Assembly: GCA_041551115.1 (NCBI GenBank)
Contig: JBFENN010000003.1
Span: 1 to 45,357 of the forward strand
Reading direction: 5' to 3'
From: Anaerolineales bacterium
Lineage (GTDB): Bacteria; Chloroflexota; Anaerolineae; Anaerolineales; UBA4823
Length of the DNA: 45,357 nt
The notes below the pieces were generated by a model that worked only from the letters and a program-made list of their open reading frames with translations, did no database searches and was not told the origin of the DNA. How positions within the stretch are numbered: the stretch's first letter is position 1; each line of letters opens with the position of its first letter. The position numbers were made by a program, and so were the translations under genes. This document shows positions 34,052 to 45,357 of this stretch, in pieces.

Positions 34052-35875
34052 TTAGAACACGGCGTCTACCATCAGTACAGCCATCAAAAATGCCAGGTAC
34101 ATGCTTGAATACCGGTACATCTTCCAAGCTACTTTGTTGCCAGCCTGCTTCCAGACTTGCCAAGCGGTTAAAACTAACCAACCGCCTAAGACGATTGCGC
34201 CAACAAAATAAATATTGCTTCCCAACCCAAACAGTGGTAGGACTAATGTCAAGATCACCAATTCGACAGTATATACAAGTATCTGCCGGCGAGTTTCCCT
34301 CTCCCCCTTGATGACTGGTAACATCGGGACACCGGCTCGGGCATAATCTTTCCGTCGCACGAGGGCTAACGCCCAAAAATGAGGTGGGGTCCACATAAAG
34401 ATCACTGCGAACAAGAATAATGAAGGGATATTGAGGCTGCCGGTTGCCGCTGCCCAACCAACCAGTGGAGGGATTGCGCCGGCACCTCCCCCAATGACGA
34501 TGTTCTGAACTGTAGTCTTCTTTAAGAGAATACTGTATAAAAAGACATAATAGAAAATACCTGCGAGCGTTAATAACGCAGCCAATAAATTGACAAATGC
34601 CACCATGATGAAGAATGAGGCTAGAGAAATGGCAACACCGAAAGCAAGCCCTTCTGCAGGGGTTAGCCTTCCTGAGGGGATTGGCCTTTTTTGGGTGCGT
34701 TGCATCTTGAGATCATCACGGCGATCAATATATTGATTTATTGCACCTGAACCGCCGGCTGCCATAAAACCACCGACGAGCGTCCAAAACGTTAACCCTG
34801 CACCAGGCCAAGCCTCAGCTCCGATTACCATCCCAGCGTAAGTTGTCACAAGGAGCAGTACAACCACGATTGGTTTTGTAAGTAGCAACAAGTCTTTCGC
34901 CATCCCTGACAGCCTGCGCGGCTCTTCCGAATGAATATGGACAGTTTTTGTCTCGTGCTTGGTTAATCCAACAAAAGCAAGAAGAACGACGAGGGCTCCC
35001 CAGACCGCAATGGATGTAACGCTATGAAGCATATAAAGGCTTGCGGAGGTCTCGACTATCATTTTGCTGCCTAGAAGCGCCTGGCTGAAGATCAATACTA
35101 CTGCAACTGTCACCGGGACAAGTACAGTCGCCTGCATCCGATATGTTTTCCAGGCCTTCAACATCGTGGACAGCAGCAAACCAAATGTGATCAACACCAA
35201 ACTGCGATGCACTATGTTTAGGACAACCAAGAATGCCGGTTGGTCGCTTGAAAAACTGCACAATGGCCAAGATGGGCATGCTCCGCCAGCATCTGTAGCA
35301 GCAATTACTGCCCCACTGATGGTTAGCAGTGCATATGCCGTTATAACAGCAACCACCTGCCTGGCGTAAGCTGAATTCATGGTAAAACCTATTTCCTGCT
35401 CATTACTTGAGTGCTTGATTTGGTCATAGCGGGAAAAACCGAAGACAGCTGCGATAACGAATGCAGCTAACGCAAGCATGGATAATCCTAGATGAAATGT
35501 TGGGAGCCACAAACTTTGCTGGTTGGCCATAATCGCCCCAATGCCAATTTGGACAATGATCATAACGGCCGCTGCAATCACAGGCAGCTGGAGTAAACGT
35601 ATCCCACGCGCCCACCGTAAAGTAAAAACCACCGCAACCAATGTCAGGACAGCGGAGATTAGCGTTGTTAGCCGGTGGAGATAGTCAATGAACCCAGATT
35701 GATCGGTTGGCGGAGAAAAAGTTCCATAACACGTCGGCCAATCTGGGCACCCCGCTCCGGAAGTGGAACTGCGCAGCATCCCGCCCAGCACGATCACAGC
35801 AATGACTGAGAGCGCAGCAGCCAATAATAAGAAGCGAACTAGTGATGCTTTTCTACGGTTATCGGTGGGTATCAT
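34052..35875 (-). CDS. ctaB: Fused heme A synthase-like (CtaA/COX15) and heme O synthase (protoheme IX farnesyltransferase)
   Basis: N-half 'GCPDWPTC...YLHR' and 'ACPSWPLC...IVHR'. C-half 'LTKP', 'DRRDDLKMQRTQKRPIPSG', 'WTPPHFWAL', 'DYARAGVPMLP'. Confidence 0.92.
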   Translation of the reverse strand: MIPTDNRRKASLVRFLLLAAALSVIAVIVLGGMLRSSTSGAGCPDWPTCYGTFSPPTDQSGFIDYLHRLTTLISAVLTLVAVVFTLRWARGIRLLQLPVIAAAVMIIVQIGIGAIMANQQSLWLPTFHLGLSMLALAAFVIAAVFGFSRYDQIKHSSNEQEIGFTMNSAYARQVVAVITAYALLTISGAVIAATDAGGACPSWPLCSFSSDQPAFLVVLNIVHRSLVLITFGLLLSTMLKAWKTYRMQATVLVPVTVAVVLIFSQALLGSKMIVETSASLYMLHSVTSIAVWGALVVLLAFVGLTKHETKTVHIHSEEPRRLSGMAKDLLLLTKPIVVVLLLVTTYAGMVIGAEAWPGAGLTFWTLVGGFMAAGGSGAINQYIDRRDDLKMQRTQKRPIPSGRLTPAEGLAFGVAISLASFFIMVAFVNLLAALLTLAGIFYYVFLYSILLKKTTVQNIVIGGGAGAIPPLVGWAAATGSLNIPSLFLFAVIFMWTPPHFWALALVRRKDYARAGVPMLPVIKGERETRRQILVYTVELVILTLVLPLFGLGSNIYFVGAIVLGGWLVLTAWQVWKQAGNKVAWKMYRYSSMYLAFLMAVLMVDAVF

Positions 35876-35923
35876 TTTCGTACTCGCAAGCTAATAATGA
35901 AATTATGATTTAGACAAGAGCAT

Positions 35924-36745
35924 CTAATTGGATTTGTTCATGCGGTGATATATCAAGATCGGATAACCAATTCCTAAGATAATCGCAAACGTAAACCACT
36001 GCAGTGCGTATCCAAAATGAGGGCCTTCTGTGAGTTCCAGTTGGGGTAAAGCCCGGTAAGGCAAATCTTTCCAGGCCTCATCAGGTGCTTGCTGCACATA
36101 TGCAATTGGCTGCAGTTCAAAAGGTACCTGCTTGGCAATCTGTGCTGTATTGGCAAAATTCCATACTCGCAGTGGCTCTTCACCAGGTAGAGGAATAGGG
36201 TCAGTCCGCCGCCCATAGTCAGGTTTATCTTGTGACGCCCGCAGCATGCCTCTTGCTTCCACCAGACCAGTTTCGGCATAAGTTGACCAATCCTCGTATT
36301 GAAAATTTTCTATTGGAACCCAACCCCGGTTGACCAAAATATACGTATCTGTGCCAGATATTTTTAGGGGAGTAAGTAAATTCACACCTATCCGATTGCC
36401 CCTGGCTTGGTTGCGAAGAGCAACCTCGTGCGAGAAGTCATATTCCCCACGGACTACAACAGAGCGATATTCCATATCGCCGAGATCAAGATCCATTGTG
36501 GATTGATCCAGGATCAGGGTGGGCTGTGCAAGCTGAGCAGATACACGAGCATTGAACGAACGGCGTTGTTCAAGACGATCGAGCTGCCAGATTCCTAACC
36601 GGACCATAACAGCCATCGCGATTATGACAATGAAAGTAGCAAAGATCCACCGTCGGGTAATCATCGCCAGCACAGTACTGCTGCCCATTCTGAGAGCATG
36701 ATTGCGCTGTTCAATATCTTTAGAGCTATCGATTGCGTGTGTCAT
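35924..36745 (-). CDS. SURF1 family cytochrome oxidase assembly protein
   Basis: 'LGIWQLDR', 'LVNRGWVP', 'HFGYALQWF'. ATG 36745 forms an ATGA overlap with the upstream stop. Confidence 0.92.
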   Translation of the reverse strand: MTHAIDSSKDIEQRNHALRMGSSTVLAMITRRWIFATFIVIIAMAVMVRLGIWQLDRLEQRRSFNARVSAQLAQPTLILDQSTMDLDLGDMEYRSVVVRGEYDFSHEVALRNQARGNRIGVNLLTPLKISGTDTYILVNRGWVPIENFQYEDWSTYAETGLVEARGMLRASQDKPDYGRRTDPIPLPGEEPLRVWNFANTAQIAKQVPFELQPIAYVQQAPDEAWKDLPYRALPQLELTEGPHFGYALQWFTFAIILGIGYPILIYHRMNKSN

Positions 36746-37266
36746 GCAGATTGTTCCATCCATTTAAGTGGATCATCTTTCTTCACTGGAAAAACCAAGA
36801 AAGAATATAAAAATAGAAAAGCGGTTGTCGTCGGGACCGAAATACCTAAACCGACTAGACGGGTAGTCCATGTCGTCGGTTGGCGGACATCAAACCCCAA
36901 ATATTGACTGGGCACGAAGGAACAGGTGTAAGAATATTCGTTAGCTTCATCAAGCACCAAGCTGCCTGCGGCACCGGGTGGTACCCAAATCGGCCCAAGC
37001 TGGTGGTTGACTGTATCTTGGTTAATGACTTCCAGCACATCACCTAAGACAAAAACCGAATCTGCAGGTAATGAGATTACATCCTCACCTGCTTCTACAC
37101 TTTGCGAGGCCCCTTCGGGGATCACAAGTTGAATCGTCTTGGGCGCTCGACCGGTCTCATCCCGCTGGAGTAAAAACGCACCCTCGGTGATAATAACCAT
37201 CATTCCCAACGAGATCAAGAATATGACGACCAATCGAAGCACATACGGTCGGTACTCGGGCTTCAT
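36742..37266 (-). CDS. Membrane-anchored protein with a cupredoxin-like domain, function unknown
   Basis: Two terminal TM helices around 'LGDVLEVINQDTVNHQLGP...YSYTCSF'. Embedded between the SCO and SURF1 genes. Confidence 0.6.
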   Translation of the reverse strand: MKPEYRPYVLRLVVIFLISLGMMVIITEGAFLLQRDETGRAPKTIQLVIPEGASQSVEAGEDVISLPADSVFVLGDVLEVINQDTVNHQLGPIWVPPGAAGSLVLDEANEYSYTCSFVPSQYLGFDVRQPTTWTTRLVGLGISVPTTTAFLFLYSFLVFPVKKDDPLKWMEQSA

Positions 37267-37270
37267 TTAA

Positions 37271-37876
37271 CTACCCCTCCCCGACCAAATTCTCGATATC
37301 CGCAAGCATATCTTCCCAATCCATCTCAAAAGGGTACGTCAAACGCCAATTGCCTGCTTTATCTATGAGATAAGTTCTTGCAGTGTGATCAACAAGATAC
37401 CCTGATGCACTGCCTAACTCTTGCTTAGCCCGGTAAACACCATAATCCTGGTAAACCATCTCTAGAGCTGCGACCTCACCGGTCAAACCCAATATGGACG
37501 GATGATAGAATCCCAAATATGTGTTTAATCGAGCGACATCATCCCGCTCAGGATCCACAGTTATGAACGCGAAGCGGACTTGATCCGCCTGATCACCTAA
37601 GCTCTCAATTATCTTCTTGTACTCAGAGAGCGTAATCGGGCAAACATCCGGGCAGTTTGTATACCCAAAGAAAATCAACACCACATCACCAGCCTGCTCA
37701 CTCAATCGAAAAGTTTCCCCATGGTGGTCCGTAAGTTCAAAATCTGCTGCAGGTATTGGAGGTTCTATATGGGAACCTTTGAATTCATATGGCTGGTTCG
37801 ATATTTGCCAACCAACAAGCAACAATCCAAGTCCGATTAATATCCCCACCCCGAGGTACAACATCCTTGATTTCAT
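37271..37876 (-). CDS. SCO1/SenC copper chaperone
   Basis: 'FFGYTNCPDVCP', 'TVDPERD', 'VDHT', N-terminal TM helix. Confidence 0.95.
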   Translation of the reverse strand: MKSRMLYLGVGILIGLGLLLVGWQISNQPYEFKGSHIEPPIPAADFELTDHHGETFRLSEQAGDVVLIFFGYTNCPDVCPITLSEYKKIIESLGDQADQVRFAFITVDPERDDVARLNTYLGFYHPSILGLTGEVAALEMVYQDYGVYRAKQELGSASGYLVDHTARTYLIDKAGNWRLTYPFEMDWEDMLADIENLVGEG

Positions 37877-37954
37877 AACATCACGTGTCCAGAGTTAGCG
37901 TTGATTTACCATCTCCAACAGTCACTTGATTTGCTAACCGATCTTTATCGGTTA

Positions 37955-38530
37955 TTAAATTGGCGTACCGATTAAGTAAAGCGCTGGATAGAAAAATATC
38001 CACACAACATCAACAAAATGCCAATATACAGCCACAGCTTCAACTGGCCAATGCCTTTCAGAATTGTACAAACCTTTACGACTGTTTCGGTAAACGATGA
38101 TCAGGAAGATTACACCGGAAAACACATGGAAGGCGTGGAACCCAGTCATAATATAGAATAACGAAGCCGCGACGCTATCGCTCGGTCCGAAGGGCGCGAT
38201 ACGCCATTCAACACCAACAACCCCAACCAGAAAGATAATCCCTAATACGATTGTGATCAGGATGCTGATATTGAAATTCTTCTTATCATCATATGCCATA
38301 GCAGTCTCAGCTCGGTTCATAAAGAAGCTGCTGATTAACAAGATGCTGGTCACCGCCAAACCCAAGAGCTGATTTAATTCCGGTCGGAAATCAGTTCCCA
38401 GCAAATAGAAACGGCTAACTAGCAATCCTCCGAAAATGAAAACCTCTGATAACAAGAACAGCCACAGCCCAAGCCGGTTGGTGGAGGTCTTATGTTTGTA
38501 GTCTTGGATCGTAGTCGAATGTGTAGCCAT
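37955..38530 (-). CDS. coxC: Cytochrome c oxidase subunit III (short form)
   Basis: 'GLWLFLLSEVFIFG', 'TGFHAFHV', 'YWHFVDVVW'. True start is ATG 38530 (TAATG coupling, SD GGAGG). Confidence 0.93.
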   Translation of the reverse strand: MATHSTTIQDYKHKTSTNRLGLWLFLLSEVFIFGGLLVSRFYLLGTDFRPELNQLLGLAVTSILLISSFFMNRAETAMAYDDKKNFNISILITIVLGIIFLVGVVGVEWRIAPFGPSDSVAASLFYIMTGFHAFHVFSGVIFLIIVYRNSRKGLYNSERHWPVEAVAVYWHFVDVVWIFFYPALYLIGTPI

Positions 38531-38781
38531 TAATGCGCCTCCTCTTCTCCAGCAAACAGACGGCCAATGTGCATGTAATCCCTTAGTACCAATGCGGCCT
38601 TTAACACTGCGATAGCGACTAATGGTGCCCACCAGCCGATGGCGATCGAGCCCAACCAATATTCTCCGATTGTAAAAACCCCTAACAATACCAATACAAC
38701 GATACCAATTCGGTAGGCTTCATTTCTGTTTTCCACCAATTGCTCTTCGCTGTTTGAGGTTGATTCTTTTTTTTCTGCCAT
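38530..38781 (-). CDS. Cytochrome c oxidase subunit IV family protein
   Basis: Two TM helices, 'FTIGEY' and 'AVLKAALVLRDYMH'. Position within the cox operon. Confidence 0.82.
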   Translation of the reverse strand: MAEKKESTSNSEEQLVENRNEAYRIGIVVLVLLGVFTIGEYWLGSIAIGWWAPLVAIAVLKAALVLRDYMHIGRLFAGEEEAH

Positions 38782-38882
38782 TTCAGTAATCTCCTGCCTA
38801 AATCCTCTTCCTGCTGTGTTAAATCATGATAAAAAATGGTGCTTCTAAGGGCACATAGACCGAAATTCATGCCTTTATTATG

Positions 38883-40829
38883 TTAGTCCGCGGTCGCTGG
38901 GATCGCTTCGGCACTCGGAGTCGCTTTGTCATGATCCGGGTGCATATCGATATAGACTGATCCTTCCAGACCATAATCATACGGGTCTCCCACAACTTCG
39001 AAAGGTTCATCGTAATTGATCGCAGGTGCCGGATTAGGTGTTTGCCACTCAGGTGAACGCGAACGCCACGGGTTGGTTCGGGCTATCTCTCCGCGCTTAG
39101 CGCTCGAGTAGAAGTTATATAAAGCAACTAATACTGAAAACGCAATTGCAAATCCAGCGATCGTTATCATCAAGTGTTGAATTTCAATCCCCAAAGCTGG
39201 ATCATAATCGGCAATCCGGCGCCTCATTCCCAACAGACCAACCTGCATCTGACTCAATGATTGCAGATAGAAAGCCGGAAGCATCACAAAGAAATGCAGC
39301 TTCCCAAGCCTTTCACTATACATTCGCCCAGTCACCTTTGGGAACCAATAGTAAATTGCCGCAAAAAACGGAAAGACAAATCCCCCAAACATTGTCGCGT
39401 GGAAATGCCCTACGATCCAATATGTATCCTGGACATGAAGATCGGTTGCCACAACCCCGTTTGGGGGGCCGCTTAATCCACCCAATAGGAATATCGAGAT
39501 TGCACCCAGCACAAACAACATGGGTGTCTCAAAAGACAATTTCCCTTCCCATAAAGTGCCAATCCAGCTGAAAAACTTTATGCCAGTCGGTACGGCAACA
39601 AGCAGCGTGCTGTACATGAAAGGCACTCGCAAATAGGGTGCCATACCAGAAGTAAACATATGGTGAGCCCAAACGAGGAACCCGACAATCGCGATCCCAA
39701 ATGAAGAAACCGCCACCCACTTATATCCAAACAACGGTTTCCGGGAGAACACTGGCAGCAGTTCACTGATTACTCCCAAGCCGGTCAGGATGAATACATA
39801 TACAGCGGGGTGGGAGTAAAACCAGAAAAGGTGCTGAAACAAGATCGGATTTCCACCCAACTCGGGTTTGAAAAAGCCCATCCCAAACAACCGCTCCAAC
39901 ATGACCATCTCAAAAGATAGACCAATTAATTGGGTAGCCGTCAGGCTGATCACAGCTGTTGCCAATGCAGTCCAGACGAAAATCGGCATCCGGAAATAGC
40001 TCATCCCAGGAGCACGCATTGTTACAACCGTTACAATGATATTCAACGATCCAAAAACGGAAGATAACCCGATGATAATTACCCCCAGGAAGAACATCTG
40101 CATCCCTAAAGGTGCTTGAGCGCTGAGTGGAGGATAACCAGTCCAACCGGTGTCAAAACCACCTAAGAAGAGTGTGCTGACCAGCCAGATTCCAGCAGGA
40201 ATATTCAGCCAGTATGCAAAAGCATTCAATCGGGGAAATGCCATGTCATTGGCACCAATCATCAGCGGGACAAGATAGTTCGATAGTGCCGCCACACCAA
40301 GCAGGATTGCACCAATCATGACGATGCCGTGCAAACTCATGATGGTGTTATAGAAATTCAAACCGCTCATTCCCAAAATCTCAGCATCCTGGGTCATGAA
40401 CTGCAGTTCCGATGCCGCCAATTCAGTGCGAAATGTCAACGCGAAGATGCCAGCCAGGGTGAACAGTATCAAGGATGTGATACCGTACTGGAGCCCAATG
40501 ACCTTGTGATCGAATGATATGTTAAGCAGCTTTCGCCAGCCTGACAATTCTGGCGCGTGGGGATGGTTTGTTGTTTCAACACCATTCATCCATTTCAGCC
40601 AATCTGAGAGTGTGCCTGCCCCAAACAGGAAACCGAACGATCCAAAAATAGCCCCGACAACCCAGGCGGCTTCGGCAAACCATGCTTCGAGCCCCATCAA
40701 TAGGCGCACACCGGTTACCAGTCCCATACCTAGCAAGAGACCAATCACCAATCCGATAAGACCACGTACCATACTCAAAGTGAAGAAGCTGACTTTATTT
40801 TCTTCGTTCATATTTTCTCCGCTCATCAT
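38883..40829 (-). CDS. coxA: Cytochrome c oxidase subunit I, A2-type, with N-terminal hydrophobic extension
   Basis: His ligands 'SLHG', 'WFYSHPAVY', 'WAHHM', 'GHFH'. D-channel 'DMAFPRLN', K-channel 'PTGIK'. Alternative start at 40811. Confidence 0.97.
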   Translation of the reverse strand: MMSGENMNEENKVSFFTLSMVRGLIGLVIGLLLGMGLVTGVRLLMGLEAWFAEAAWVVGAIFGSFGFLFGAGTLSDWLKWMNGVETTNHPHAPELSGWRKLLNISFDHKVIGLQYGITSLILFTLAGIFALTFRTELAASELQFMTQDAEILGMSGLNFYNTIMSLHGIVMIGAILLGVAALSNYLVPLMIGANDMAFPRLNAFAYWLNIPAGIWLVSTLFLGGFDTGWTGYPPLSAQAPLGMQMFFLGVIIIGLSSVFGSLNIIVTVVTMRAPGMSYFRMPIFVWTALATAVISLTATQLIGLSFEMVMLERLFGMGFFKPELGGNPILFQHLFWFYSHPAVYVFILTGLGVISELLPVFSRKPLFGYKWVAVSSFGIAIVGFLVWAHHMFTSGMAPYLRVPFMYSTLLVAVPTGIKFFSWIGTLWEGKLSFETPMLFVLGAISIFLLGGLSGPPNGVVATDLHVQDTYWIVGHFHATMFGGFVFPFFAAIYYWFPKVTGRMYSERLGKLHFFVMLPAFYLQSLSQMQVGLLGMRRRIADYDPALGIEIQHLMITIAGFAIAFSVLVALYNFYSSAKRGEIARTNPWRSRSPEWQTPNPAPAINYDEPFEVVGDPYDYGLEGSVYIDMHPDHDKATPSAEAIPATAD

Positions 40830-40845: not shown

Positions 40846-42258
40846 TTACTGCAAACTCTCGATGAAACTGATCACGTCATCAATCTGCTGATCCGTCAAT
40901 TCGGCAGCAACATTGACTGGCATGATATTGCCAAATCCTTGGACGATGTTCGCTCCGGGGTTGCGGATTGATTCAAATAAATATTCATAGTCGGCGACTG
41001 TTGTGCTGCCATCATCAAATACCCGCTCACTACCATATAATCCAGTCCAGGTAGGACCTACTCCCTCGCTGCCATCAATAGAATGGCAAGCTTGGCAGCC
41101 ATAAGTAACATACAAATTCTGGCCGCGTGCGACAGGATCGGCCTCGTCTCCAGCTTGAGAGATCAACCAATCTTCAAATGCGGTTTTCTCCATGACGATG
41201 ACTGGAGCAGTCATATAAGTATGCTGTAACCCACATAACTCGGCACAACGTAAGGTGAAGTCACCGACTTGCGTGGGCGTCACCCGTAAATCTCTAACCA
41301 GATCCTCGCCGGGTAAAACATCTTGCTTAACTCTGAATTCTGGTACCCAGAATGAGTGAATGACATCGACCGAAGATAGATGGAGCAGTGCCTGCTCATC
41401 AACAGGCAAACGCAACTCGGTAGTAGTTATGCCGTATTCGGGGTATTCGAAGCGCCAAGACCACTGCTGCCCAATCACATTAACTTCCATCGCCTCTTGA
41501 ATTTTTTGTGTATCTGCTAAAGCGATGCTACCTACGTAGGCAAAATAGATAACAACAGCTAGTGGGATAACGGTCCATATGACCTCTAGTCGTGTGTTCC
41601 CTTCGACATGCTTGGCGTCGGAATAATCGCCCTTCTTGCGGCGGAATACGACAATGCTGTAGAGCATAAAAACGATAATCAGCGCAAACAAGAATGCGAT
41701 CACCATAAATTCCATTCTAAACATGCGGTCAATTGGTGCCGCTTGCGCGCTAGCTGCATCAGGAAGTAGTCTTACCTGACCCAATCCGAAGACCAACAAG
41801 GCAGTAACAAAAACTACCAATATACCCACAATAACAAAATGCTTCATACCACTTCTCCTAGTAGAGTCGCTATCAGGCTTTCCTGGTATTTTCTCGATTT
41901 GATTTTCTTGGTTGCTGTCACCCTGCCACTTTTTTAACCAATCATCAACCTGGGAACCGGACATGGTTCGACGGTCATATACTAGCGCTTCTTGCCCACC
42001 ATCATGCAGCGAGAGTACTACTACACGTAGCTGTTTCCCAGCTTCTAAAAAACGCGCTAAGATCTCCTTGCGGTTTAGTAATTCATCGTCATGATCGACA
42101 AGAATTAGATCTGGATTCTGCCTTTCCAAATATGGAACAGCTTCATCTACGCTGGAGACGACGCCAATGACTTCAACATCGCCGCCTTTACGCTCTTGCA
42201 GCAAACTGCGTAATCCCTCACCAAAAAGAGCATGGTTTGAGGCAATTAGCACGCGCAT
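40846..42258 (-). CDS. coxB: Cytochrome c oxidase subunit II (CuA + C-terminal cytochrome c, caa3-type) with an in-frame N-terminal receiver-like domain
   Basis: CuA 'DVIHSFW...CAELCGLQHTYM' and heme c 'CQACH'. N-terminal 'MRVLIASNHALFGEGLRSLL...PDLILVD'. SD-preceded ATGs at 42258 (GAGGA) and 41847 (AGGAGA). Confidence 0.9.
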   Translation of the reverse strand: MRVLIASNHALFGEGLRSLLQERKGGDVEVIGVVSSVDEAVPYLERQNPDLILVDHDDELLNRKEILARFLEAGKQLRVVVLSLHDGGQEALVYDRRTMSGSQVDDWLKKWQGDSNQENQIEKIPGKPDSDSTRRSGMKHFVIVGILVVFVTALLVFGLGQVRLLPDAASAQAAPIDRMFRMEFMVIAFLFALIIVFMLYSIVVFRRKKGDYSDAKHVEGNTRLEVIWTVIPLAVVIYFAYVGSIALADTQKIQEAMEVNVIGQQWSWRFEYPEYGITTTELRLPVDEQALLHLSSVDVIHSFWVPEFRVKQDVLPGEDLVRDLRVTPTQVGDFTLRCAELCGLQHTYMTAPVIVMEKTAFEDWLISQAGDEADPVARGQNLYVTYGCQACHSIDGSEGVGPTWTGLYGSERVFDDGSTTVADYEYLFESIRNPGANIVQGFGNIMPVNVAAELTDQQIDDVISFIESLQ

Positions 42259-42327
42259 GGGTTTCCTCATTCTATCCACCGTATTTTTCTAATTCAGACC
42301 TGTATTATGAGAGTTTCTCCAATAGCA

Positions 42328-42356
42328 AATTTACCAAATTGCTCCCGGCGTGTCAT
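42328..42356 (-). promoter_or_regulatory. Predicted promoter of the cox operon
   Basis: Minus strand ATGACA (42356-42351), 17 bp, TG-G-TAAATT (42333-42328). Confidence 0.55.
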
Positions 42357-42393
42357 CCTTCCAGCCTGAAAATAAGGAGGATATTAAATAACA

Positions 42394-42423
42394 CGGAGGG
42401 GTGATTTAGCAATCACCCCTCCG
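42394..42423 (-). terminator. Perfect 13-bp inverted repeat: terminator of the two-component genes and/or regulator binding site
   Basis: CGGAGGGGTGATT-TAGC-AATCACCCCTCCG, followed on the minus strand by TGTTATTT. Confidence 0.6.
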
Positions 42424-42451
42424 CAGATTTATTTTCTAGACTTGGTTTTTC

Positions 42452-43096
42452 TTAGAGTTCTCGTTGAATTAACCCCATCTGCGTAGCTTTACTAACTGCT
42501 TCAGCTCGATTTGCAGCTTCCATTTTTTCCAAAATATGCCTCACATGCGTTTTGACTGTATTCTCAGAGATGAATAATGCATCAGATATCTGAGCTGTCG
42601 TCATCCCATTGGCAAGACAATCTAGCACATCCTTCTCCCGGCTGCTGAGGCCGAAATCTTGGGACTTCGAACGGTCGACGTCCACCGCCTGCAAGACCCT
42701 TTTTGTCACATCTGGCGAGAGCACTGCCAATCCTTCATTTACTTTTCTGATTGCAGAAGATAATTCATCTGGCGTTGCATTCTTCAAAAGATATCCATCC
42801 GCTCCAGCTTTGATGGCACCAAAAAGATCTTCGTCATTTTTTGAGACCGTCAGCATCAAGATTTGGCATGAAGCGGTTTTTTTAAGGATTTTTACCGTCT
42901 CAACACCGTCCATGATCGGCATGTTTACATCCAACAGCACAACATCGGGTTTTTTTTCTGCAATTACAGATAATGCTTCACGACCGTTTCCTGCTTCACC
43001 AACTAAATCAAATTCAGGCATGCCATTCAACAAACTAACCAATCCCGAACGAAATAAGGCATGGTCATCAACAACAACTAACCTGATTTTACTCAT
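42452..43096 (-). CDS. NarL/LuxR family response regulator
   Basis: 'VVDDH', 'PDVVLLDVNMP', 'GYLLK', HTH 'LSSREKDVL...ISENTVKTHVRHILEKM'. Confidence 0.96.
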   Translation of the reverse strand: MSKIRLVVVDDHALFRSGLVSLLNGMPEFDLVGEAGNGREALSVIAEKKPDVVLLDVNMPIMDGVETVKILKKTASCQILMLTVSKNDEDLFGAIKAGADGYLLKNATPDELSSAIRKVNEGLAVLSPDVTKRVLQAVDVDRSKSQDFGLSSREKDVLDCLANGMTTAQISDALFISENTVKTHVRHILEKMEAANRAEAVSKATQMGLIQREL

Positions 43097-44925
43097 GAGA
43101 CACTCTCTCTCATATTCAACGGCATACGAACTCGGACAATGGTCCCATCATTATGTTTGCCGATGACCTGGAATTCTCCGCCTATCAATTCAGCCCTCTC
43201 ACGCATACTCCGTAAACCATGTGTAGTTGGCACTTGGATATCGGAAGTATCGAACCCAATCCCATTATCTCGTATTTCAAGGATCAAATCGCCGTGGTAC
43301 TTGCCACATGATATATGAATTAGGTTAGCCTTGGAATGCTTGCGGATATTATTCAATGCTTCCTGAACCACACGCATAAGTTGAGCATTTACTTCAGGTG
43401 ATAGTTCCAGATCATCCCCCTCAATGGTTATGTCAATCTCTAATCCGGTATTTTCGACAAAATCTGCGGCCATCTTTTCCAACCAGATCTTAATTCCGGG
43501 ATCCTCGCTTGGTACACGCAAGCCATCAATCGCTTGTCGTGCATCCAGGTAGGCATTTGATACAGTCTCGTAACAGATAGGGACGGTCATCTCCAACTGG
43601 TCATATTCACCAAACTCCAAGAAGGTTTTCATCTGTGCGATCTTGAGTTTCAAGAATCCCAAGGTTTGTGCTAAGCCATCATGGATTTCACGTGAAAGAC
43701 GTTTCCGTTCATCCATCACCGTGCGATACTCCAATTCGGTAAGCATTTCCATATTATTGAGCACCAAGGCAGCCTGACTGGCTAACGATCTAATCAAGCT
43801 GCGCTGACGTTTGGTTAGGTCGAGGTTTCGATTCTTGCCAACAATCAGCACTCCTTGGATTGACTCGTCGGGGGAAATCATTGGCACGCCGATAATGGTA
43901 TAACCGCCTGATTTTATGTTTTCATCTTGATCATAGTTTTTAAGAATGACAACATCATCCGAAGTCATTACGGTGGGAAATAAGCCTTGAATAAAGCCAT
44001 TCACATTCTCTGGAAACATACCGTTCGAAACCCAAATCTCTGGTGGTCCGCTGGGCGATATCTGTTTAATAATCAGGGAATAATCCAATTCCAGGCTTTC
44101 GTGTAGGTTTTCTAAAAACTCAGAAAGCACGCTCTTTGGATCCGTCTTCGCCCGGATCGCATTCATTTGGCGCAGAGTATTCAATTCTCTATTCCGCAAA
44201 CGGATCGCTTCTAATGCAACTGCGGTTTCATCAGTAATTTTCTTTAAAAATTCCTTTGAATCCTTACTCAAATCACCAGCTTCAGGCAAGTATAGGTTTA
44301 AAAGTCCATACTCTTGTTCACCGCGCTGCAAGCGGACGCAGTATATGTTGGTGTGTTCGCTAAATGTTCCAATGAGCAGCGGGCAGCTTTTGGATAATGA
44401 CTCTACGGACTGACAATCGGAGCATCGGGCTCGCATTTTTGGCGATGCCAGGTATTCTAACCAGGCGTCAGCGGCAGGCAGCGGCATCTCTCCGCGAGTT
44501 GTCGCTGTCAGAGGCTGGGCTCGGTCATCCAACGGAACGAAAGACGCACCGCGTGCACCAAGGATGTCTATTGAAAGCTTCAAGATCAGTTCGACAACTT
44601 CGCCCTCGGCTTGAGCGGAAGCAAAAAGCTGTGAAATTTCAAACACAACCTGCTGCATTATTTGAGCAGCAGTCAACTCATCCTCTAGTGTTCTGATACG
44701 CGTCAATAATGCTGCATGCTTAGCTCGATAGGTGTGCTCTCGGCCGACAATAGCATAAGTCAGCAAACCTAAGAAAGCAAGAAAAAAGCTGCCCATCGAA
44801 GCCCAAAGACCAGCCGCGCCAATGGGAACTACGAAATGGATGATGATTTCATTCGCAGCAATTAATCCTAATGTGATTAAGATAATGCTATGCTGAGTTT
44901 TTGGTCGCCAGGTTATCTTTTGCAT
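43093..44925 (-). CDS. Membrane histidine kinase (2 TM, two GAF-like domains, HisKA_3, HATPase)
   Basis: H-box 'ERKRLSREIHDGLAQ', 'QEALNNIRKHS', 'DNGIGF', 'HGLRSMRERA'. 4-bp overlap with the response regulator gene. Confidence 0.94.
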   Translation of the reverse strand: MQKITWRPKTQHSIILITLGLIAANEIIIHFVVPIGAAGLWASMGSFFLAFLGLLTYAIVGREHTYRAKHAALLTRIRTLEDELTAAQIMQQVVFEISQLFASAQAEGEVVELILKLSIDILGARGASFVPLDDRAQPLTATTRGEMPLPAADAWLEYLASPKMRARCSDCQSVESLSKSCPLLIGTFSEHTNIYCVRLQRGEQEYGLLNLYLPEAGDLSKDSKEFLKKITDETAVALEAIRLRNRELNTLRQMNAIRAKTDPKSVLSEFLENLHESLELDYSLIIKQISPSGPPEIWVSNGMFPENVNGFIQGLFPTVMTSDDVVILKNYDQDENIKSGGYTIIGVPMISPDESIQGVLIVGKNRNLDLTKRQRSLIRSLASQAALVLNNMEMLTELEYRTVMDERKRLSREIHDGLAQTLGFLKLKIAQMKTFLEFGEYDQLEMTVPICYETVSNAYLDARQAIDGLRVPSEDPGIKIWLEKMAADFVENTGLEIDITIEGDDLELSPEVNAQLMRVVQEALNNIRKHSKANLIHISCGKYHGDLILEIRDNGIGFDTSDIQVPTTHGLRSMRERAELIGGEFQVIGKHNDGTIVRVRMPLNMRESVS

Positions 44926-45125: not shown

Positions 45126-45357
45126 CTAGCCTAGCGATTGTAAAGTTTGCAGAATCTCCGAGCTGTGTTCAGCGGGTTTCACTTTTTCAAATACGCGCAC
45201 GATTTCACTCTTCGCACTGATGATATAAGTTGTACGCAACACCCCGTCATACTCACGTCCCATAAACTTTTTCCGGCCCCACACACCATAAAGTTCACAT
45301 ACTTCGTGGTCTTGATCTGCAAGTAGGGTAAAGGGCAGCTCATATTTGGTTTTAAAC
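45126..45357 (-). CDS. bcp: Peroxiredoxin BCP/PrxQ, 3' part only (absent from the ORF track)
   Basis: Manual translation from 45356: FKTKYELPFTLLADQDHEVCELYGVWGRKKFMGREYDGVLRTTYIISAKSEIVRVFEKVKPAEHSSEILQTLQSLG*. Confidence 0.9.
   Translation of the reverse strand, partial: FKTKYELPFTLLADQDHEVCELYGVWGRKKFMGREYDGVLRTTYIISAKSEIVRVFEKVKPAEHSSEILQTLQSLG

Follow-up and report, generated by a model that had tools for sequence, protein, structure and literature searches.

A membrane-anchored histidine kinase with an invariant four-cysteine GAF domain, a candidate sensor for the aerobic respiratory chain of Anaerolineae

The stretch of DNA considered here, called the window below, comprises the 45,357 nucleotides (nt) at positions 1 to 45,357 of contig JBFENN010000003.1 from an Anaerolineales bacterium (Chloroflexota, assembly GCA_041551115.1). 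It encodes a membrane-anchored sensor histidine kinase, whose first cytoplasmic domain carries a cluster of four cysteines (the Cys4 site), followed by a NarL-type response regulator and the genes of a caa3-type oxidase. The four cysteines are the defining invariant feature of this GAF-fold domain. The kinase very probably switches the genes of the aerobic respiratory chain, and comparison of gene order and of a recurring palindrome between genomes gives good support to its regulatory link with respiration. The chemistry of the Cys4 site is approached by analogy: an iron-sulfur (Fe-S) cluster responding to oxygen is plausible, and the reading in which such a cluster sits in the GAF pocket and reports the oxygen or redox state is tentative, falling a little short of an even chance. 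The kinase and its partner comprise the following features:

43093..44925, minus strand: sensor histidine kinase of 610 amino acids, with two transmembrane (TM) segments, a GAF domain with the Cys4 site, a second GAF domain, HisKA_3 and HATPase_c (open reading frame, ORF, and Pfam)
44746..44886, minus strand: two hydrophobic membrane segments, residues 14-32 and 42-60 (hydropathy scan)
44161..44688, minus strand: first cytoplasmic domain, GAF fold with the Cys4 site, residues 80-255 (AlphaFold2, Foldseek)
44338..44424, minus strand: Cys4 site, Cys168-x2-Cys171-x9-Cys181-x14-Cys196 (translation and homolog alignments)
43759..44142, minus strand: second GAF domain, residues 262-389, without a Cys cluster (Pfam GAF_2, E 6.5e-12)
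42452..43096, minus strand: NarL/LuxR-type response regulator with a receiver (REC) and a GerE helix-turn-helix domain (Pfam, NCBIfam)

The 610-residue kinase translated from the ORF at 43093-44925 (minus strand) contains RCSDCQSVESLSKSCPLLIGTFSEHTNIYC. The pattern C-x2-C-x9-C-x14-C at 44338..44424 had been pointed out by a model that saw only the letters of the DNA (the original prediction), and it was recovered at exactly these coordinates. The kinase has six cysteines in total, and the site spans residues 168-196; random placement brought four of six cysteines within 29 residues in 954 of 200,000 trials. The original prediction had also proposed a comparison of the homologs at these positions, which gave a uniform picture. 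All four cysteines are present in 121 of 121 sequences (the query and its 120 best word-index homologs, 40-99% identical to it) and in 94 of the 94 rows of alignment A1. Identity to the query falls to about 26% among the 142 region-covering representatives of 50%-identity clusters, taken from the best 150 of the 251 found by an exhaustive HMMER search (E<=1e-3), and 140 of them have the complete set. The two exceptions are P0218, a protein of 367 amino acids in which Ser replaces the fourth Cys, and P0258, a marginal match (E 0.002) of 2332 amino acids. The spacing across the family is C-x2-C-x(7-15)-C-x(12-25)-C, with modes at x9/x10 and x14, and the third Cys is followed by Pro in 83% of the sequences (P182 of the kinase) and then by Leu in 89%. 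The motif was likewise found in 32 of 34 related genome loci, the remaining two being a frameshifted gene and a partial match, and in 19 of 20 loci of distant relatives (27-30% identity), where the exception is a contig end. The only invariant residues of the domain are the four Cys, with two Gly added in alignment A3; no His is invariant.

The domain had been described at the outset as GAF-like, and this holds for the fold, as seen in the model and its structural matches; the sequence by itself gives a GAF_3 match under the threshold. The AlphaFold2 model of residues 80-255, made from a 94-row alignment, has a predicted local distance difference test score (pLDDT) of 87.9 and a predicted template modelling score (pTM) of 0.84. 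Almost all of the best Foldseek matches listed for it in the PDB are GAF domains (probability 1.0, TMq 0.5-0.68), among them PDE5A, PtsP, KdpD, the GAF-A domains of DosS/DosT and NifA, and an Atlas feature search with the Cys4 domain also gives GAF clusters. With the domain alone, the gathering scores of the Pfam GAF models are not reached: GAF_3 gives 23.8 bits (cut-off 27, E 6.3e-5) and GAF_2 18.2 bits (cut-off 28.6), with both alignments covering the full length of the model. A sequence-profile search of the PDB with A1 returned matches to other parts of the kinase and none on the Cys4 domain; with the domain-only profile A3, the best match is the C-terminal half of a GAF domain (E 0.0048). 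Comparison with the kinase's own second GAF domain is colinear, at E 0.035 and a probability of 1.4%.

In the model, Cys168 lies between two short helices, Cys171 within the second of them and Cys196 on a beta-strand, so that the Cys positions span the helices and loop after beta2 plus the next strand. This segment is presumably the part that covers the ligand pocket in GAF domains, and the four cysteines would thus sit in the lid and floor of the usual pocket. Two known ways of binding a cofactor by cysteine were tried and rejected. For a bilin-binding GAF domain of the phytochrome or cyanobacteriochrome type, Cys181 aligns opposite the Cys of a Cph2 GAF domain at a non-significant E of 0.57, and no His follows the Cys. 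For the attachment of a c-type heme, no CxxCH is found in the kinase, the sole CxxCH being in CoxB.

The remainder of the protein is a regular kinase. Pfam assigns a GAF domain to residues 262-389, HisKA_3 to 406-473 and HATPase_c to 514-604, with nothing above threshold in residues 80-255. The kinase boxes are intact (H-box EIHDG at 413, N-box NNIRKH, G1 DNGIGF), and PDB profiles matching the core are those of VraS, DesK and DevS. The regulator gene overlaps the kinase stop by 4 nt. Its product matches Pfam Response_reg (3.4e-27) and GerE (2.3e-21) as well as the NCBIfam NarL model (7.7e-54, under its cut-off), and has the acidic pocket (an Asp pair), the phospho-Asp and the Lys intact. With all the defining features present in the sequence, the kinase is classified as a HisKA_3 histidine kinase with an adjacent NarL-type partner, the kind of partner that had been proposed. 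The hydropathy scan bears out the tiny loop which the original prediction placed between the TM helices: the connector between the hydrophobic cores has nine residues, and there is no periplasmic domain. Because such a domain is absent, sensing must be cytoplasmic or membrane-proximal, in line with the cytoplasmic sensing suggested before. Two such hydrophobic segments occur in 154 of 214 motif-bearing family members, with connectors of <=22 residues. The Cys-bearing GAF domain (Cys-GAF) is the most family-specific part of the kinase, which has no other obvious input domain.

The output of the system is indicated by its neighbours. Downstream of the regulator gene lies the predicted operon of a caa3-type oxidase, so classified because CoxB has CuA together with a C-terminal heme c domain, and the peroxiredoxin gene noticed upstream of the kinase is present as a fragment at the window end:

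40846..42279, minus strand: CoxB (subunit II) of the caa3-type oxidase (Pfam, NCBIfam, TM segments and motifs)
34052..40829, minus strand: oxidase cluster after coxB, overall (Pfam; same order in related loci)
38883-40829, minus strand: CoxA (Pfam)
38530-38781, minus strand: COX4-like protein (Pfam)
37955-38659, minus strand: CoxC (Pfam)
37271-37876, minus strand: Sco1 (Pfam)
36742-37266, minus strand: conserved unknown gene of 174 amino acids, no Pfam match
35924-36763, minus strand: Surf1 (Pfam)
34052-35875, minus strand: CtaA-CtaB fusion of 607 amino acids (Pfam)
45126..45356, minus strand: 3' part of a peroxiredoxin gene (AhpC/TSA, Bcp-like), cut by the window end (Pfam PF00578, E 1.6e-8)

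The 34 related loci come from a scan of species-representative genomes, and all belong to Anaerolineae-type Chloroflexota. In 23 of them, the regulator gene is followed on the same strand by coxB and/or coxA, and in two by oxidase assembly genes only; unrelated convergent genes follow in six and the contig ends in three. In 28 of the 34, a peroxiredoxin homolog is encoded on the same strand 0.05-7 kb upstream of the kinase. In the window's own genome (87% complete), a single such kinase domain and a single COX1 stand side by side. The locus is also carried by at least one cultured species, Levilinea saccharolytica (locus L011).

The link between kinase and oxidase is extended by a palindrome, which lies in front of the oxidase genes and is followed by a promoter-like sequence:

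42392..42425, minus strand: hairpin and candidate operator between the regulator gene and coxB, a terminator-like stem of 15 pairs
42328..42356, minus strand: ATGACA-17-TAAATT, a promoter-like sequence with an upstream TG, 35 nt past the hairpin

The core palindrome, GGGTGAT-N6-ATCACCC at 42399-42418, occurs once in the window, where 0.01 matches would be expected. The arrangement of hairpin and promoter recurs, by eye, in the upstream regions of related cox and Rieske genes. The consensus is GGGTGAT-N5-8-ATCACCC, located about 40-47 nt upstream of promoters of the ATGACA-17-TGnTAAATT type, and a third half-site-like element, AAATC[AC]C.CC, can be recognised by eye between the palindrome and the -35 element. 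Among the related loci, 25 have cox or assembly genes after the regulator, and 20 of these contain the exact core GGTGAT-N5-9-ATCACC; of the remaining five, four have it with 1-2 mismatches and one lacks it. Where cox is not downstream of the regulator, the exact core is found in 0 of 6 loci. Of the 20 distant-relative loci, 18 have a kinase-regulator pair and could be compared, and none of these contains the exact core.

The genomes in which the kinase and the oxidase are unlinked are informative about the targets. In five such genomes (six kinase loci), the full palindrome occurs 11 times and control matches 0 times. Each genome has one of these palindromes some 110-150 nt in front of REC-coxB (five in all), four more stand upstream of Rieske/cytochrome b operons (in four of the five genomes), and two lie elsewhere. 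Five genomes with linked loci contain the palindrome eight times, at cox (3), at Rieske/cytochrome b (2) and elsewhere (3), and it precedes both kinds of operon in G251 and G253 too. The window's own genome has a second copy upstream of a Rieske gene (G000:C168:765-782), with the same spacing to a promoter-like AAGACA-17-TAAACT. In five genomes of the same order that have COX1 and lack the kinase, 0 of 15 core matches lie <=1.5 kb from cox or Rieske/cytochrome b genes. The loci considered for the palindrome include L066, L070 and L074-L084. No Rfam match to the palindrome was obtained at E<=1.

The possibility that the palindrome is a terminator alone was rejected, because it is found behind the regulator gene in 0 of the 6 loci without cox and stands before unlinked cox and Rieske/cytochrome b operons. 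The palindrome is concluded to be the predicted operator of a small regulon, made up of complex III and complex IV, and the adjacent NarL-type regulator is most likely the protein that binds it. In the original prediction, the kinase switched the adjacent caa3 oxidase. Conserved synteny and the shared operator-like palindrome speak for this part, but the likely regulon is wider, since the Rieske/cytochrome b operons carry the same palindrome.

The distribution of the family was sampled as well. The Cys4 domain occurs in 30 of 251 genomes in an even sample of the class and in 4 of 301 in a sample of the phylum, all four in the window's own order. A COX1 match is present in 27 of 29 kinase-positive genomes of the class (the window's own genome left out) vs 135 of 221 negative ones. 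Separately, several distant kinases with the Cys4-GAF domain (27-30% identity, longer third spacer) adjoin a second, divergent heme-copper oxidase, whose COX1 scores about 320-330 bits and is 23-25% identical to the CoxA of the window. They were found in L040, L048, L050 and L053 and at G060:C10, G237:C5, G214:C190, G105:C101 and G036:C90. The pairing of sensor and oxidase therefore covers two oxidase types.

From these data, the following mechanism is proposed. The kinase would be the sensor of a two-component system over the aerobic respiratory chain in a group of Anaerolineae. Its two helices would tether it at the membrane, and the four cysteines of the first GAF domain would ligate an Fe-S cluster, whose integrity or oxidation state may report oxygen or the redox state of respiration. 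From the Cys-GAF, the signal would reach the HisKA_3/HATPase core by way of the second GAF domain and coiled-coil linkers. The phosphorylated NarL-type regulator would then bind GGGTGAT-N6-ATCACCC and activate the caa3 and Rieske/cytochrome b operons. Activation is a guess from the position of the operator, far upstream of weak -35 elements, and hence the kinase is assumed to be on when oxidised, as in AirS and Hik2/CSK. Such a mechanism is suggested by four invariant residues of ligand type, modelled on the pocket side of a sensory fold, and by their pattern of one CxxC pair and two lone cysteines with a Cys-Pro at the third putative ligand. By analogy, it is further favoured by the DosS-like architecture, with a cofactor in the first GAF domain, and by the precedents of AirS, NreB and Hik2/CSK (PMC4601167 and PMC6949291, both in excerpt). 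The spacing of the cysteines also recalls the high-potential iron-sulfur protein pattern CX2CX12-16CX13C given in the excerpt of PMC6949291.

Several observations weigh against this reading. The co-occurrence of kinase and COX1 is a modest enrichment among related genomes that are not independent, and the 27 COX1 matches include three weak ones (E 1e-5 to 5e-4). Of the 19 exact palindromes in related genomes, five adjoin genes of other kinds (for a PucC-like transporter and NosD, for a radical SAM protein, or unknown ones), Levilinea has a degenerate copy and none that is exact, and the palindrome also forms the terminator-like hairpin behind the regulator gene. It could be bound by another transcription factor; we take it to resemble half-sites of the CRP/FNR type with a longer spacer. 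In the model of the domain, the loop of Cys181 is the part of lowest confidence, with a block pLDDT of 64-69. The Fe-S kinases NreB and AirS are soluble. The membrane anchoring of the present kinase fits the sensing of quinones or thiols at least as well, and the conserved upstream peroxiredoxin fits a relay of peroxide or thiols.

The last two points are the main ones in favour of a thiol switch, either metal-free or zinc-releasing, in which disulfides would form upon oxidation of the quinone pool, as in ArcB/RegB, or through a peroxide relay from Bcp. A membrane anchor without a periplasmic domain is the style of the ArcB/RegB sensors, the bcp gene stands upstream in the 28 of 34 loci mentioned and, in two distant relatives without cox inside 12 kb (L037 and L038), directly upstream of the kinase, and CxxC is the classic redox-active dithiol. 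However, such a switch usually needs one or two cysteines, and here four are invariant with a nearly fixed spacing over deep divergence; bcp stands anywhere from 0.05 to 7 kb away from the kinase gene, with further genes in between. This explanation is held to be unlikely, though serious enough to be carried along. A similarly low chance is given to structural Zn(II), which would stabilise an enlarged GAF lid at the Cys4 site, with the input arriving through the TM helices, the second GAF domain or a partner, and with the system still in control of the respiratory operons. Four cysteines with one CxxC pair are a common zinc site, invariance is expected of a structural site, and the Cys-free second GAF domain could serve as the sensor instead; in the excerpt of PMC8199190, there is no evidence that the GAF-like module of NarX/NarQ senses anything. 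A zinc RING was tried and rejected, as the profile matches of the Cys region to RBX1 (E 2-10) are not significant and amount to a likeness of pattern. The modelled CxxC, however, lies in short helices and not on the beta-hairpin 'knuckle' that is typical of zinc ribbons. The other two cysteines are lone, 9 and 14 positions apart, the site faces the ligand pocket of a sensory fold, and it belongs to the most family-specific domain of a kinase with no other obvious input.

A further explanation is the sensing of an oxidase cofactor, with the four cysteines holding a Cu(I) thiolate cluster or a heme bound via the Cys-Pro, so that the respiratory complexes would be made only when their metals are available. 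The oxidase cluster contains Sco1, Surf1 and the CtaA-CtaB fusion, which handle copper and heme a, Cys181-Pro182 resembles a heme regulatory motif, and GAF domains can bind heme, with the GAF-A domains of DosS/DosT among the fold matches listed. No case of a GAF domain sensing Cu(I) is known to us. In addition, the CxxCH motif is absent, a heme wants one or two ligands rather than four invariant cysteines, and copper is absent from the Rieske/cytochrome b operons that carry the same palindrome. Sensing of a cofactor is thus regarded as very improbable.

The comparison with known systems starts from the database label NarX, which many homologs of the kinase carry. NarX and NarQ are defined, in the excerpt of PMC8199190, by a periplasmic sensor domain (with the P-box) between the TM helices and by a subsequent HAMP domain. 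The identification of the kinase as NarX was rejected, because both the periplasmic sensor and HAMP are absent. PF13675 and PF00672, which true NarX proteins have, were not found in the kinase, and the NCBIfam NarX/NarQ models match only residues 357-605 at 105-116 bits, far under the cut-offs of 553-578.

There is nevertheless a resemblance to one part of NarX. A cysteine cluster is given as a NarX signature in the excerpts of PMC3519889 and PMC1805755. In NarX of Escherichia coli K-12, it consists of Cys302, 308, 313 and 316 in the central GAF-like module (C-x5-C-x4-C-x2-C), invariant in 112-113 of 113 enterobacterial sequences. As in the kinase, four invariant cysteines stand just before the last two GAF-like strands of a HisKA_3 kinase with a NarL partner, and both proteins have ligands in a 'CQ' and a 'CP' context. 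The differences are the periplasmic nitrate sensor and HAMP, which only NarX has, and the spacing of the cysteines. BLASTP aligns kinase residues 157-247 with NarX 299-382 at E 4e-4. The Smith-Waterman score of the Cys-GAF against the NarX module is 64 vs 29.2 +/- 4.8 for shuffled sequences, 0 of 1000 of which reach it, and the second GAF domain stays at chance. With hhalign, the pair gives E 2.2e-4 and a probability of 45%, against E 0.14 for the second GAF domain as a control; the probability is only 23% with A3. The NCBIfam NarX model gives no match to the Cys4 domain alone. Homology between the Cys-GAF and the Cys-cluster module of NarX is likely but unproven, as only two of the four cysteines align and the NarX hidden Markov model misses the domain. 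In the literature covered here, partly in excerpt, no function of the NarX cysteine cluster turned up.

By architecture, the closest characterised systems are DosS/DosT-DosR (DevS/DevR) of mycobacteria, which share the order GAF-A, GAF-B, HisKA_3 and HATPase_c and a NarL/LuxR regulator. The profile and the model of the kinase match the DevS/DosT kinase cores and the GAF-A and GAF-B structures, at an identity of only 12-15% in these fold matches. In the excerpts of PMC8063818 and PMC4601167, the first GAF domain of DosS holds the cofactor that senses redox state or gas and the second has no known ligand. The cofactor of DosS/DosT is a His-ligated heme, whereas the kinase has four cysteines and a membrane anchor; the output is a dormancy regulon there and the aerobic chain here.

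By chemistry, the closest systems are AirS, NreB and Hik2/CSK; the kinase lacks the motifs or domains that define these. AirS (YhcS) of Staphylococcus aureus likewise combines four cysteines in an N-terminal sensory region with a NarL-type partner. According to the excerpt of PMC4601167, it holds a [2Fe-2S] cluster, and the kinase activity depends on whether this is oxidised, lost or nitrosylated; this review places the cluster in the 'N-terminal region', where the original prediction had named a GAF domain, and gives the motif Cys-X7-Cys-X-Cys-X17-Cys, which the kinase family does not have. The likeness is drawn from descriptions, and AirS is a global regulator in a Firmicute, unlike the Anaerolineae kinase. 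It has no membrane anchor. In NreB, four cysteines ligate an O2-labile [4Fe-4S] cluster, NreC is the partner, and respiratory genes are controlled (PMC4601167, in excerpt). The NreB cluster lies in a PAS domain of a cytoplasmic protein, in contrast to the GAF domain and two TM segments of the kinase, and NreB switches on anaerobic (nitrate) respiration when O2 is absent. In Hik2/CSK, a GAF domain holds a redox-active [3Fe-4S] cluster that reads the quinone pool, the oxidised form being the active kinase (PMC6949291, in excerpt). These proteins, compared by description, have one identified Cys ligand and no Cys motif, are soluble and belong to another kinase class.

ArcB and RegB (PrrB) are membrane-anchored quinone-responsive kinases with almost no periplasmic loop. 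They resemble the kinase in this respect and in the control of respiration, theirs through redox-active cysteines. Their cysteines number one or two and are located in PAS domains or close to the dimerisation and histidine phosphotransfer domain, they have no Cys4 GAF domain, and they belong to other kinase and regulator families. Redox-sensitive cysteines of ArcBA, PrrBA and RegBA are mentioned in the excerpt of PMC8199190. The distinct family claimed by the original prediction stands in so far as the Cys spacing differs from that of AirS and the GAF domain from the PAS domain of NreB (PMC4601167, in excerpt); it is tempered by the weak, specific likeness to the Cys-cluster module of NarX.

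An additional element of the locus is found in the oxidase itself. CoxB consists of an N-terminal atypical receiver, three TM segments, the CuA domain and a C-terminal cytochrome c domain (CQACH):

41920-42258, minus strand: atypical receiver at the N-terminus of CoxB, about residues 8-120 (model and fold matches)

The receiver model has a pLDDT of 79.1, and the closest structures are receivers of the NarL family (DesR, VraR, LiaR, NarL). In 25 sequences, the phospho-Asp position and a Ser never vary, an invariant Ala-Ser stands in place of the acidic pair, and the Lys is lost. Among the loci examined, 22 have the receiver in front of coxB, fused to it in 14 and encoded by an ORF of its own in 8; L021 and L030 have it ahead of assembly genes only. 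The three hydrophobic segments that follow would place the receiver in the cytoplasm and CuA outside, as read from topology. Such a receiver might link the oxidase to the adjacent two-component system. No paper joining the terms for a receiver-CoxB fusion was found.

The neighbouring genes offer some side observations. The 174-amino-acid gene between sco1 and surf1 is kept in most related oxidase clusters (33-66% identity), and its product is possibly an unrecognised oxidase assembly factor. CtaA/COX15 (heme a synthase) and CtaB/UbiA (heme o synthase) share one ORF here and in most related loci. Of 12 ORFs tested from short gaps between bcp and the kinase gene, 6 encode a monoheme cytochrome c, and in L021 the gene of an Rrf2-family regulator occupies this place instead. 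In L006 and L024, which have no adjacent cox, the regulator gene is followed convergently by the glyoxylate shunt genes for isocitrate lyase and malate synthase, probably by coincidence.

Cultured Anaerolineae have been described as strict anaerobes, and their genomes encode aerobic respiration (PMC4653796). A literature search found no published regulator of Anaerolineae oxidase genes and gave only work on AirS, NreB, CSK and the DosS type. The locus presents a complete circuit that runs from a candidate Cys4 sensor via kinase and regulator to a candidate operator and two target operons, and it corrects the automatic "NarX" annotation for several hundred database proteins. The kinase is a good candidate for a new oxygen sensor based on a metal or on redox chemistry. 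If the Cys4 site holds an Fe-S cluster, this would be a third way, after the PAS domain of NreB and AirS/CSK, of wiring such a cluster to a histidine kinase, and it would offer a clue to what the cysteine cluster of NarX does. The parts may also be read jointly, though this view is doubtful: in a new class of sensor, a GAF domain with a Cys4-ligated Fe-S or redox-metal centre in a membrane-tethered kinase would be the master switch of the aerobic chain, the same kind of module would explain the NarX cluster, and the CoxB receiver would tie the enzyme into the circuit. Should this be true, the CoxB receiver might, for example, feed back on the regulator of its own gene, and the chain under control would be the Rieske/cytochrome b complex and the caa3 oxidase, in bacteria long held to be strict anaerobes.

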